Part shown: positions 12,761-17,729 of the stretch, one piece after another
Position numbering within the stretch: position 1 is the first letter of the stretch
Layout: each line of letters begins with the position of its first letter
NCBI GenBank assembly: GCA_963736235.1
Contig: CAVTOR010000032.1
Location: 109 to 64,108, forward strand
Reading direction: 5' to 3'
Source of the DNA: an uncultured Gammaproteobacteria bacterium
GTDB taxonomy: Bacteria > Pseudomonadota > Gammaproteobacteria > Chromatiales > Chromatiaceae
Length of the DNA: 64,000 bases
Made by a program: the position numbers and the translations under genes
Notes under the pieces: model-generated
The model's database searches: none
The model's input: the letters and a program-made list of their open reading frames with translations, nothing else
Told to the model about the DNA's origin: nothing

Positions 12761-12856
12761 GTGGTCCGCCTTTTCTGATCGCTCGCGCCGATGGTGGGCC
12801 GCCCTTTCAGGTGATCCAGAATTACCTGTTACGTGACCTTATCAGCATTCTGAAAT

Positions 12857-12875
12857 TATACGCAGATAACGTATA
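12857..12875 (+). promoter_or_regulatory. perfect palindrome TATACG-N7-CGTATA 10 nt upstream of higB (putative HigA operator overlapping a -10-like TATACT)
   Basis: Read directly from the sequence. The identical element is at 16751-16769 in front of the second copy. Confidence 0.4.
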
Positions 12876-12884
12876 CTTGTGCGC

Positions 12885-13244
12885 ATGAAGCTCGTCTTCT
12901 TCGAAACCCCGATCTTCACGCGGCTACTGCCTACCTATCTGGACGACGAAAGCTACAGAGCCCTCCAACGCCTGTTGCTGAGCTCGCCCGAGGCGGGCGC
13001 TGTCATGCCGGGCACCGGCGGTTTCCGAAAGCTCAGATGGGAGGATCCACGACGCGGAAAGGGCAAGCGGGGTGGTCTGCGGATCATCTACTTCTACCTT
13101 ACCGCGGATCGTCAGATCTGGTTCTTTACGATTTACGGAAAAGGTGAGGCCGTGGATCTCAGCCAGGAGGAGAAGAAGGCGTTGAAGAAAGCGATCCAAG
13201 CCGAGTTGGCCCTCAGGAGAAAAAGCGATGACCGGCAAGCGTAG
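12885..13244 (+). CDS. higB: type II toxin HigB-2 family (RelE/ParE superfamily)
   Basis: 'MKLVFFETPIFTRLL...GTGGFRKLRW...GKGKRGGLRIIYFYL...WFFTIYGKGEAVDLS' closely follows the Vibrio cholerae HigB-2 pattern. Toxin-first gene order. Confidence 0.8.
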   Translation: MKLVFFETPIFTRLLPTYLDDESYRALQRLLLSSPEAGAVMPGTGGFRKLRWEDPRRGKGKRGGLRIIYFYLTADRQIWFFTIYGKGEAVDLSQEEKKALKKAIQAELALRRKSDDRQA

Positions 13245-13560
13245 ATTGTTCGACGAGCTCATGGACGGCGTCGAGTCCATGGAGCGGCACCGCAAGGGCA
13301 AGATCACGCTTCGTTCAATCGAGGCCGATGATCTCGCGCCTCTCGAGATCGATGCCGAACTGATCCGTGACACCCGGGAACGGATGAATGTTTCGCGGGC
13401 GGTCTTTGCCCGTAGATTGCGAGTATCGACCCGCACGCTGGAGAACTGGGAACAGGGGCGGGCACGTCCGAACGCGCAAGCCGCCGCCCTCATCTTGATG
13501 GTAAGGAAGTATCCGGACACGCTTGAGAAACTTAGTGGTTTGGACAACCGGGCAGCGTGA
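13228..13560 (+). CDS. higA: HigA-2-type antitoxin (XRE-family HTH, COG2944-like)
   Basis: Motif 'IRDTRERMNVSRAVFARRLRVSTRTLENWEQGRARPNAQAAALILMV'. Overlaps the toxin stop by 17 nt. Confidence 0.8.
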   Translation: MTGKRRLFDELMDGVESMERHRKGKITLRSIEADDLAPLEIDAELIRDTRERMNVSRAVFARRLRVSTRTLENWEQGRARPNAQAAALILMVRKYPDTLEKLSGLDNRAA

Positions 13561-13792
13561 AGAGCAGGTTGCACGCATGGCTTCCCGAGCCACCCTTGTT
13601 CTCGCTCTGTTCATTGCATTCTTTTCTAGCGTGTATCCAAACTCCCAAGCACGGTGTTCCCGCACACCGGTCAAATCTCAGCCCCAGCGTTCTCAAAACT
13701 CCCTTGTATGTCCTTGTATTCATTTGTATCGACATGCAGGTCTGATTGTAGCGGGGAAGATTCGAAAAACGTTTAAAAACAATTGGATAAGG

Positions 13793-13853
13793 GCCATAGC
13801 GCCGCAAAATGGGGTTCAGGTGGTCGGAGGTTCGAATCCTCTCGCCCCGACCA
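13793..13853 (+). pseudogene. tRNA-Pro 3' fragment (D-arm remnant to CCA end, anticodon stem decayed)
   Basis: 'GTCGGAGGTTCGAATCCTCTCGCCCCGACCA' is a canonical tRNA-Pro T-arm, acceptor 3' strand and CCA. 'ATAGCGC' and 'TGGGGT' remnants lie upstream. No matching 5' acceptor strand (CGGGGCG) is present. Confidence 0.6.
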
Positions 13854-16673: not shown

Positions 16674-16750
16674 CTCAATGTCTCACGCTTGGCGCGGTAA
16701 CAGCGGTGCGAGAGCGGCAGGGGGCGCAGGCTTGATCAGCATTCTCAGAT

Positions 16751-16769
16751 TATACGCAGATAACGTATA
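16751..16769 (+). promoter_or_regulatory. second copy of the TATACG-N7-CGTATA palindrome, in the 105-nt divergent region between the AEP-helicase and higB copy 2
   Basis: Read directly from the sequence. Confidence 0.4.
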
Positions 16770-16778
16770 CTTCTGCCC

Positions 16779-17138
16779 ATGAAGCTCGTCTTCTTCGAAA
16801 CTCCAGTCTTTACGCGCCTACTGCCTACCTACCTGGACGACGAAAGCTACAGAGCCCTCCAACGCCTGTTGCTGAGCTCGCCGGAGGCCGGCGATGTCAT
16901 GCCAGGCACGGGGGGGTTTCGGAAGCTCAGATGGGAGGATCCAAGACGCGGAAAGGGCAAGCGGGGTGGTCTACGGATCATCTAGTACTACCTTACCGCG
17001 GATCGTCAGATCTGGTTCTTTTCGATCGACGGGAAAGATGAAGCTGTGGATCTGAGCCAAGAGGAGAAAAAAGCGTTGAAGAAAGCAATCCAAGCCGAGT
17101 TGGCCCTCAGGAGAAAAAGCGATGACCGAAAAGCGTAG
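16779..17138 (+). pseudogene. higB: higB-2 family toxin, copy 2, in-frame nonsense codon at 16983-16985
   Basis: Copy 1 reads 'atc atc tac ttc tac ctt'. Copy 2 reads 'atc atc tag tac tac ctt' (TAC to TAG). The frame stays open and homologous downstream to the TAG at 17136-17138. Confidence 0.75.
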
Positions 17139-17454
17139 CTTGTTCGACGAGCTCATGGACGGCGTCGAGTCCATGGAGCAGCACCGCAAGGGGAAGATCA
17201 CACTTCGTTCAATCGAGGCCGACGATCTCCCGCCACTCAAGGTCGACGCCGAATCGATCCGCGACACTCGGGAGCGGATGAATGTGTCGCGGGCGGTCTT
17301 TGCCCGCAGATTGCGAGTATCGACCCGCACGCTGGAGAACTGGGAACAGGGGCGGGCGCGGCCGAACGCGCAAGCCGCAGCCCTGATCTTGATGGTACGG
17401 AAGTATCCGGACACGCTCGATAGGCTCAGTGGATTGGACAACCGGGCGGCGTGA
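17122..17454 (+). CDS. higA: HigA-2-type antitoxin, copy 2 (intact)
   Basis: 110 aa, about 90% identical to copy 1 by eye. Confidence 0.8.
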   Translation: MTEKRSLFDELMDGVESMEQHRKGKITLRSIEADDLPPLKVDAESIRDTRERMNVSRAVFARRLRVSTRTLENWEQGRARPNAQAAALILMVRKYPDTLDRLSGLDNRAA

Positions 17455-17729
17455 CGAGCAGGTTGCGTTCATGGCTTCCCGAGCCGCCGTTGGCTTCACG
17501 TTATTCGTTACATTCTTCTCCCGCGTGTATCCACACTCGCAAGTACGGTTGTAAGTGATCAACAAAGCACCCGTCTCCCGCAGAACGAGGGAGCGCTCAA
17601 GCATCCGTCGGCCAGGTAATGGTTTCTGACTTTCAGAGACTTACGCGCTTGAAAATGGCGTTAGATCCATGTGCCGCGGGAAGCGCTGTCTTGATCTGTG
17701 TTTACCTTATGCCGCGTGTATGCGCTTGA

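Follow-up and report, generated by a model that had tools for sequence, protein, structure and literature searches.

A probable tandem array of two eroded, integrase-less islets at a tRNA-Pro attachment site in a Chromatiales-like gammaproteobacterium

We analyzed 64,000 nucleotides (nt) of contig CAVTOR010000032.1 (GenBank assembly GCA_963736235.1), hereafter the window, and describe an island at positions 12788 to 17721. The island carries two copies of the toxin-antitoxin (TA) gene pair higB-2 and higA-2 and, between them, a gene (iee) whose predicted 828-aa product resembles IEE, the insertion sequence (IS)-excision enhancer of Escherichia coli. It is probably an eroded tandem array of two related integrative islets of ∼4.06 kb, both lacking an integrase, at an attachment site (att) formed by part of a gene for tRNA-Pro(GGG). 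This DNA comes from a Chromatiales-like gammaproteobacterium.

A complete unit between two tRNA-Pro fragments

The unit is intact on L001, a 4,515-nt metagenome contig that encodes a 90% identical homolog of the 828-aa protein, carries the same divergent higB-higA pair, and matches the window DNA at 88% identity over 3.6 kb. On either side of the L001 cassette lies a copy of a 49-nt direct repeat; these copies are 98% identical and 4,062 nt apart, and window positions 13808 to 13856 differ from each of them at a single position. The 49-mer is the 3′ part of tRNA-Pro(GGG): it comprises the anticodon loop, the T arm, and the acceptor strand to CCA, plus ATT, and ARAGORN calls tRNA-Pro(ggg) once a designed complementary 5′ half is grafted onto it. 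The tRNA-Pro 3′ fragment listed in the initial annotation, which was made from the window sequence alone, is real, running from the anticodon loop (GGG) to CCA. Tyrosine integrases that insert into tRNA genes classically leave a block of identity with its start in the anticodon loop.

The window and L001 cease to be homologous exactly at the two borders of the 49-mer, and their outer flanking sequences are unrelated. This break sets the boundaries of the unit, which reads att, left arm, iee (minus strand), higB-2, higA-2, right arm, att, and totals ∼4.06 kb. We observed the complete unit and its exact boundaries as a single copy in this other sample. The initial annotation had proposed an ancestral tandem unit of cargo, higBA, and tRNA-Pro att, and L001 contains that same unit whole.

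Sequences beside att are also shared. The left arm matches L001 at 4374 to 4401 and 3977 to 4177, as well as positions 10937 to 11114 of L181, a locus from a host relative described below. The 10-mer TTCTCAAAAC occurs only twice in the 64 kb, at 13690 to 13699 and 14019 to 14028, in the arms on either side of att; it occurs four times in the L001 arms, a count that 0 of 200 shuffles reached, and may be a recombinase arm site or an iteron.

The gene list of the L001 unit contains no integrase gene, and tblastn searches with four tyrosine recombinase queries detected none in the window, as the initial annotation had stated. The 49-nt att is present in a single copy in the window, so that tRNA-derived repeats bound the unit on both sides in L001 but not here. 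ARAGORN found only tRNA-Cys and tRNA-Leu in the window, ∼3 kb further on, and no tRNA-Pro gene; with Rfam, nothing in the island matched at E values up to 1, and the two known tRNAs were the only matches in the whole window. A megablast search of a plasmid collection with positions 12000 to 18500 gave no match, and a metagenome scan with the IEE protein gave no close relatives (best match, 58%).

Two diverged and eroded copies in the window

Comparison of the window with itself by BLASTN recovered an ungapped 815-nt direct repeat (12841 to 13655 and 16735 to 17549) with 87 mismatches and 89.3% identity. The copies are offset by 3,894 nt, and their longest identical runs are 50, 50, 41, and 40 nt. 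These values agree closely with the ∼90% identical repeats at 12838 to 13650 and 16731 to 17548 judged by eye in the initial annotation, and self-alignment did not lower the identity substantially. The same comparison gave an additional 50-nt repeat at 90% identity (12788 to 12837 and 16228 to 16277), the second member of which lies inside the 828-aa gene. GC content is 0.49 to 0.61 over positions 12750 to 17700 and 0.62 to 0.70 in the flanks, and this drop supports a foreign origin; the AT-richer spacer between the repeats, also pointed out earlier, has a GC content of 0.49 to 0.52. The island and its immediate flanks contain the following features, with the two copies of the unit numbered from left to right.

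12172-12759, plus strand: host S-adenosylmethionine (SAM)-dependent methyltransferase gene, left flank (three-frame translation)
Up to 12776-12787: end of the host segment with the methyltransferase gene and terminator
12788-12837, minus strand: iee stump of unit 1, approximately codons 133-149; 90% identical to 16228-16277 and 86% identical to L001 1814-1863
12841-13655, plus strand: copy 1 of the direct repeat, with the unit 1 higBA-2 cassette (BLASTN)
12885-13244, plus strand: higB-2 copy 1, intact, 119 aa from ATG
13228-13560, plus strand: higA-2 copy 1, intact, 110 aa, with a C-terminal helix-turn-helix (HTH) domain (Pfam HTH_31, HTH_3)
13656-13807, plus strand: right arm of unit 1, AT-richer; aligns with L001 389-583 beside an L001 att
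13808-13856, plus strand: att, the 49-nt 3′ part of tRNA-Pro(GGG), at the junction of units 1 and 2
13857-14186, plus strand: left arm of unit 2, starting with TCAAAGACTTACGCATCATAGAACACCT; conserved beside att in L001 and L181
14187-16673, minus strand: iee homolog of unit 2, 828 aa, intact (Pfam and BLASTP)
16674-16778: divergent iee-higB intergenic region of unit 2, containing a palindrome and a -10 element
16735-17549, plus strand: copy 2 of the direct repeat, with the unit 2 higBA-2 cassette (BLASTN)
16779-17138, plus strand: pseudogene of higB-2 (copy 2), with codon 69 changed from TAC to TAG (16983-16985)
17122-17454, plus strand: orphan antitoxin gene higA-2 (copy 2), intact (110 aa) and 92% identical to copy 1
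17550-17721: right junction region, 172 nt, with no match in any fetched locus
From 17722: host DNA on the putP side, where homology with the relative L085 starts
17730-19265, minus strand: putP (sodium/proline symporter), right flank (NCBIfam TIGR02121, 628 bits)

Both window copies are damaged, in different ways. Unit 1 keeps 50 nt of iee, an intact higBA pair, and the right att, and relative to copy 2 it is missing ∼457 nt between the iee stump and higB. Unit 2 keeps iee, a stop-bearing higB, and an intact higA, and its right arm and att are gone. The positions expected for the full tRNA-Pro gene, to the left of unit 1, and for the terminal att, to the right of unit 2, would both fall in deleted sequence. 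The iee stump, the stop in the second higB, and the identity of the 828-aa protein as an IEE homolog had been missed in the initial annotation. Loss by internal deletion is typical of this iee-higBA family: in the decayed copy in L082 to L084 (Logan SRR12599208-10), the last 228 iee codons are fused directly to codon 31 of higB. That decayed unit lies beside HicAB, a PIN-domain gene, and a DDE transposase gene, another TA-rich array.

Over 687 shared nt, pairwise identities among window copy 1, window copy 2, L001, and L082 fall between 86 and 90%. Copy 1 is 90.4% identical to L082 and 88.8% identical to copy 2. Mismatches between the two window copies fall mostly in third codon positions (24 of 31 in higB and 21 of 29 in higA). 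Based on these star-like identities and the third-position bias, each copy appears to have evolved, with its genes functional, in a lineage of its own. This separate divergence and the att between the units favor two successive integrations over a local duplication.

The alternative of a tandem duplication in place, in which one iee-higBA segment was copied by unequal crossing-over or replication slippage and then diverged and decayed in situ, is decidedly unlikely. In its favor, tandem duplications are common, and the units lie side by side, share an orientation, and have both been damaged. The att, however, lies exactly between the units, where tandem site-specific integration predicts it, and copy 1 is nearer to L082 than to its neighbor. 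Moreover, a divergence of 11%, concentrated in third positions, amounts to long purifying selection on both copies, which is hard to reconcile with a redundant local duplicate. It is extremely improbable that an assembly artefact joined two strain variants of one locus head to tail in a contig that may derive from a metagenome. The neighboring methyltransferase gene, with three frame changes, could signal local sequence errors, but the other long genes nearby are intact, the copies differ structurally (one has an iee stump and the 457-nt deletion, whereas iee is complete in the other), and a proper att junction separates them, which is also present in L001 and L181.

The repeats themselves invite a different explanation, that the segment is an active excisable replicon whose repeats release a 3.9-kb circle, replicated by a primase-helicase and maintained by the TA pair. 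The initial annotation had leaned this way, describing recombination-ready repeats around an AEP-primase/SF2-helicase gene. The spacing of the direct repeats (3,894 nt) and their identical runs, which reach 50 nt, are compatible with such a circle, AEP (archaeo-eukaryotic primase)-helicase fusions serve as replication proteins in many small mobile elements (PMC5862659), and TTCTCAAAAC, in the arms around att, could be an iteron. We nevertheless consider this replicon very unlikely. The repeats are the TA genes themselves rather than dedicated sites, they are only 89% identical, and excision between them would leave behind, rather than carry, half of each cassette. The family's true recombination site is the 49-nt att, as L001 demonstrates, and one copy of it is left. 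The putative replication protein is a homolog of IEE, which in E. coli acts in polymerization and end joining with no unwinding detected. The picture of a self-replicating circle thus found no support, and instead of recombination-ready repeats we see two acquisitions, diverged in a star-like pattern with mostly third-position changes, in units that are both damaged.

For the two successive integrations that we favor, the history may have been as follows. Each unit would have entered a tRNA-Pro att by site-specific recombination of the tyrosine-recombinase type, with the integrase coming in trans from a different element within the same island array, and the second unit would have integrated into the att of the first, a process of accretion. 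Deletions would have removed the tRNA gene, the left att, and nearly all of the unit 1 iee, and also the right arm and att of unit 2, and a nonsense mutation would have inactivated the unit 2 higB. Site-specific excision now looks impossible, since the window has one att and no detectable integrase. The one rearrangement still possible from the sequence is a RecA-type deletion of 3.9 kb between the repeats, which would remove iee and leave a chimeric higBA.

Several points weigh against this history. With one att, no detectable integrase, and no tRNA-Pro gene in the window, we infer integration from relatives. L001 is a single short contig in which both att copies are fragments, and the full tRNA-Pro target was not observed. 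No helper integrase was identified for any unit of the family, in a screen that used four queries in the window and a home-made profile elsewhere. The star-like divergence is drawn from four sequences and 687 nt. The function of IEE is known from E. coli only. Finally, positions 17550 to 17721 do not match the unit, which leaves the right end of unit 2 unexplained.

Within this unmatched region, a 16-nt stub (17631 to 17646, “tttca[ag]agacttacgc”) matches the first bases of the left arm at 15 of 16 positions. The initial annotation had noticed that this similarity resumes after each repeat; the match stands, and the evidence for it is marginal, with an E value of ∼0.5 over the whole window and 1 of 500 shuffles (of two flanks only) reaching its score. 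The stub could be the last trace of a third unit. We rejected it as a second att: it lies outside the tRNA fragment, corresponds to the start of the left arm, and is of borderline significance.

Comparison with relatives places the island in a region that varies among hosts. The arrangement is not invariant among them, as homology with the window breaks at 12776, 12787, and 17722. On the left, L180 (95.5% identity) diverges at 12776, and L181 (84 to 90%), which has the same LysR-flavodoxin-GST-methyltransferase gene order, diverges at 12787. L181 retains an att and left-arm scar 270 nt past the same methyltransferase gene and has no iee. A tyrosine integrase gene lies ∼700 nt beyond this scar and abuts tRNA-Arg(ACG) (L181 10889 to 12968); we did not find a tRNA-Arg att repeat in L181. 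On the right, the order GATase-NUDIX-putP is common to L085 (92% nt identity) and L086, both of which carry, past putP, an MBL-fold gene that the window lacks; homology with L085 ends at 17722. The available sequence of L180 and of L085 does not contain the unit, and there is no overlap between these two loci that would reveal an empty site. Given the divergence of L180, L181, and L085 and the scar in L181, the locus is a long-standing variable island region and synteny break, and its arrangement is not conserved.

Both flanks are host DNA. The methyltransferase gene needs three frame changes within ∼100 nt (approximately 12535 to 12640), and the stitched 195-aa translation is 94% identical over its full length to the intact protein P0252, so that the gene is either a pseudogene or affected by local indel errors. 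PutP is 78% identical to proteins of Candidatus Thiosymbion and Thiocapsa. Separately, a 24-nt intergenic sequence recurs in inverted orientation at 17665 to 17688 and 63395 to 63418 (92% identity) with no Rfam match, and the same short intergenic sequence appears in L085 (2671 to 2755 versus window 63375 to 63458; 85 nt, 79%).

The IEE homolog and the HigBA-2 pairs

The 828-aa protein is, by sequence, a homolog of IEE: in BLASTP it is 46% identical to IEE of E. coli O157 Sakai (ECs_1305; Kusumoto 2011), with residues 20 to 810 aligned to residues 9 to 776 (671 bits). Pfam assigns an N-terminal AEP-TOTE domain (3.7e-99) followed by ResIII and Helicase_C, a helicase-like ATPase of superfamily 2 (SF2), and the helicase part is closest to SF2 proteins of the XPB/Rad25 type. 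The residues that matter in IEE are retained. D165 and D167 align with the catalytic Asp pair D142 and D144, Y151 with Y128 (the IEE-specific Tyr that replaces the usual His), K480 with the Walker A Lys K451, and R769 with the Arg finger R735; the roles of these IEE residues have been shown or predicted (PMC9943667). All five are invariant in an alignment of 24 homologs, and IEE-like activity would be expected of the window protein.

E. coli IEE is a DNA polymerase that carries out microhomology-mediated end joining and is a DNA-dependent ATPase, and unwinding was undetected (Calvo et al. 2023, PMC9943667). The label “primase-helicase” for the 828-aa protein is therefore, by analogy, misleading. 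Both proteins combine an AEP/PrimPol domain with an SF2 helicase-like ATPase, and both are borne on horizontally acquired DNA near a tRNA-linked integration site. In E. coli O157:H7, however, IEE resides in the 86-kb element SpLE1, ∼7 kb from SpLE1's own integrase, whereas here the homolog and its TA neighbors form a 4-kb unit in which iee is the sole cargo and no integrase is present. By homology, the surviving iee would promote excision of IS elements with a copy-out-paste-in mechanism, and deletions. IEE is characterized by transposase-dependent excision of IS3-type elements, with which it co-occurs; searches of the window with four transposase queries (IS3-type, IS66-type, and others) found no homolog.

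The protein also has 42% identity with an E. coli AEP protein for which NCBI uses the name “TOTE conflict system.” TOTE stands for TPR, OB, TBP, Effector (PMC12458937). The partner genes of such a system (a TPR-cold-shock/OB fusion and TBP) are absent near iee and among the upstream neighbors of 78 homologs, and the neighbors of the island encode HigBA, the methyltransferase, GST, PutP, and NUDIX proteins. We therefore rejected membership in a TOTE conflict system despite the AEP-TOTE match, since the genes that define it are missing.

A second primase-like gene is present in the window, a stand-alone gene with Prim-Pol and PriCT_1 domains (4711 to 5658, plus strand; Pfam, 3e-45) located upstream of the island at a distance of 7 kb. 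Since L181 has it in synteny, it appears to be resident and not part of the island.

In each copy of the direct repeat, higB is followed by higA with a 17-nt overlap. HigB is a full-length homolog of Vibrio cholerae HigB-2 (PDB 5JA9, E value 2.7e-24), and HigA is a full-length homolog of V. cholerae HigA-2 (PDB 5J9I, E value 7.7e-24). The initial annotation had assigned a higB-2/higA-2 pair to each repeat; the homology holds in both copies, whereas the toxin gene of copy 2 carries a premature TAG. The toxin-first, overlapping order with both genes intact is thus found in copy 1 and not in copy 2, where higB stops at codon 69. Half of the amino-acid differences in copy 2 HigB (4 of 8) cluster just past this stop.

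Upstream of higB, both copies contain the palindrome TATACG-N7-CGTATA (12857 to 12875 in copy 1; 16751 to 16769 in copy 2), which overlaps a -10-like TATACT (the two together at 12857 to 12877 and 16751 to 16771). A scan for promoter-like sequences matched the equivalent positions in both copies, with the copy 2 site at 16742 to 16771. The palindrome and TATACT are a putative higBA promoter and HigA operator. In unit 2 they fall in the divergent region shared with iee (16674 to 16778), through which HigA could possibly co-regulate iee. The intact HigBA-2 pair (a ribosome-dependent mRNA-cleaving toxin and an autorepressing antitoxin) may stabilize the segment, and the orphan HigA possibly cross-neutralizes the toxin.

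The resemblance to HigBA-2 of V. cholerae extends from full-length homology of both proteins to gene order, with the toxin gene first and overlapping the antitoxin gene, and to an antitoxin with an N-terminal extension and a C-terminal HTH. Vibrio HigBA-2 is a cassette of a chromosomal integron. Here, in contrast, the pair is arranged divergently with iee in a tRNA-att unit, and one of the two toxin copies is a pseudogene.

IEE homologs and their toxin-antitoxin neighbors elsewhere

The IEE family is large, with at least 8,000 close matches, and it spans many phyla, with at least 581 confirmed loci in species-representative genomes. It is not typically viral: among 2.9 million viral contigs we found ∼9 full-length homologs. 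We surveyed the surroundings of iee homologs in ∼80 other genomes with crude open reading frame (ORF) calling, so the counts that follow are approximate. A direct repeat of ≥20 nt brackets the iee homolog within 8 kb at 23 of the 52 genome loci for which both flanks were available. At least 10 of these 52 loci have tRNA-derived brackets (Phe, Gly, Pro, Met, Leu, and others) that span 3.7 to 7 kb and often occur in several copies. Integrases are sparse in these settings. Ten neighboring proteins (246 to 472 aa) were tested from 10 bracketed units, and one was an integrase; a home-made profile placed a recombinase within 10 kb of the IEE homolog at 15 of 99 loci; and arrays of up to five tRNA fragments have an integrase in one unit only.

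TA or abortive infection (Abi) modules are enriched next to the family. Such a module lies within 1.5 kb upstream of ∼24 of 78 IEE homologs, compared with ∼4 of the 46 positions, 6 kb distant, that served as controls (Fisher P of ∼0.004), and AbiEii alone accounts for 11 of 78 versus 0 of 46 (P = 0.007). The families beside IEE homologs include AbiEi/AbiEii, ParDE, Phd-ParE, BrnTA, HepT-MNT, PIN-VapB, and HigBA (HigB-2 and HigB). A literature search found no paper linking IEE with TA systems.

Individual loci illustrate the range of contexts. In L018 (1258 to 17403), five tRNA-Phe 3′ fragments spaced 3.5 to 5 kb apart mark off units whose cargo differs (an alpha/beta hydrolase; a TIR-TPR protein; ParDE plus an IEE homolog), and a tyrosine integrase is present in one unit. 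In E. coli E14 (L087, NZ_CP121149.1, 5850 to 10775, after yicC), an integrase gene is followed by genes for a hypothetical protein, a HigB-family toxin, an HTH protein, an IEE homolog, and type I restriction-modification; the TA-plus-IEE pairing there involves another HigB family than the one in the window, with all genes on one strand. In six alphaproteobacterial loci (L047, L054, L056, L063, L073, and L080), three consecutive tyrosine-recombinase ORFs lie just downstream of the IEE homolog. This arrangement recalls “recombinase in trio” elements and places the same gene in another kind of mobile setting.

One possible reading of these associations is that the IEE homolog and the adjacent TA genes act jointly as a two-part immune or anti-mobile-element system, a conflict or defense cassette, in which case duplication of the TA pair would reflect selection on the system (an extra antitoxin, or diversification) rather than the history of an element. 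The enrichment of TA/Abi modules upstream of IEE homologs, the variety of the TA families (HigB-2, HigB, ParE, BrnT, HepT, PIN, and AbiE), the assignment of the AEP domain to Pfam AEP-TOTE with “TOTE conflict system” names for E. coli homologs at NCBI, and the 105-nt divergent control region with its palindrome that iee and higB share in the window are all in keeping with this idea. The TOTE partners TPR, OB, and TBP are absent, however, and PADLOC returned no system matching the pair. TA genes are common in islands anyway, and the enrichment comes from crude ORF calls and approximate locus counts. A defense function would also leave the att, the iee stump, and the unit boundaries unexplained, so that at best it would add a function to the mobile islets described above. 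We regard a defense cassette as unlikely.

A broader proposal, which we put forward tentatively and with considerable doubt, is that minimal tRNA-targeting islets of ∼4 to 7 kb, built around an IEE polymerase-ATPase and an interchangeable TA/Abi module, are a widespread and so far undescribed class. They would borrow the integrase of a neighbor in the same tRNA-fragment array, and IEE would serve the islet itself instead of acting on IS elements only. In such islets, IEE may copy the excised circle or reseal the donor site by microhomology-mediated end joining. If the proposal is true, the window holds two worn-out members of the class.

Accretion of this kind has precedents. Site-specific integrative elements accrete in tandem at tRNA genes and give rise to integrase-less derivatives, for example the cis-mobilizable elements (CIMEs) of Streptococcus; like those derivatives, the units described here retain att sites and have no integrase. 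Tandem integration that leaves partial tRNAs behind is also documented for other island-building elements, the tycheposons of Prochlorococcus (bioRxiv 10.1101/2020.12.28.424599). As in tycheposon arrays, partial tRNA copies lie between units, newer units push older ones inward, and degraded remnants and stray partial tRNAs accumulate. Unlike these units, however, tycheposons encode an integrase of their own, and their replication module is a different one; the recurrent core here is an IEE homolog with TA/Abi genes, and most of the units examined have no internal integrase.

Locally, the finding is an ordinary decayed genomic-island remnant. The island accounts for the break in synteny between the methyltransferase gene and putP, and it shows one TA pair outliving its element while the second copy has lost its toxin and kept its antitoxin. 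The part worth following is the pairing of an IEE homolog with TA genes in tRNA-bracketed, mostly integrase-less units. Work on IEE has to date treated it as an E. coli factor for the removal of insertion sequences, and the wider IEE-TA pattern points to a role in the life of small integrative elements or in genome conflict. Compact units such as the 4.06-kb L001 element offer a concrete set for work on excision, integration, replication, and TA-mediated stabilization.

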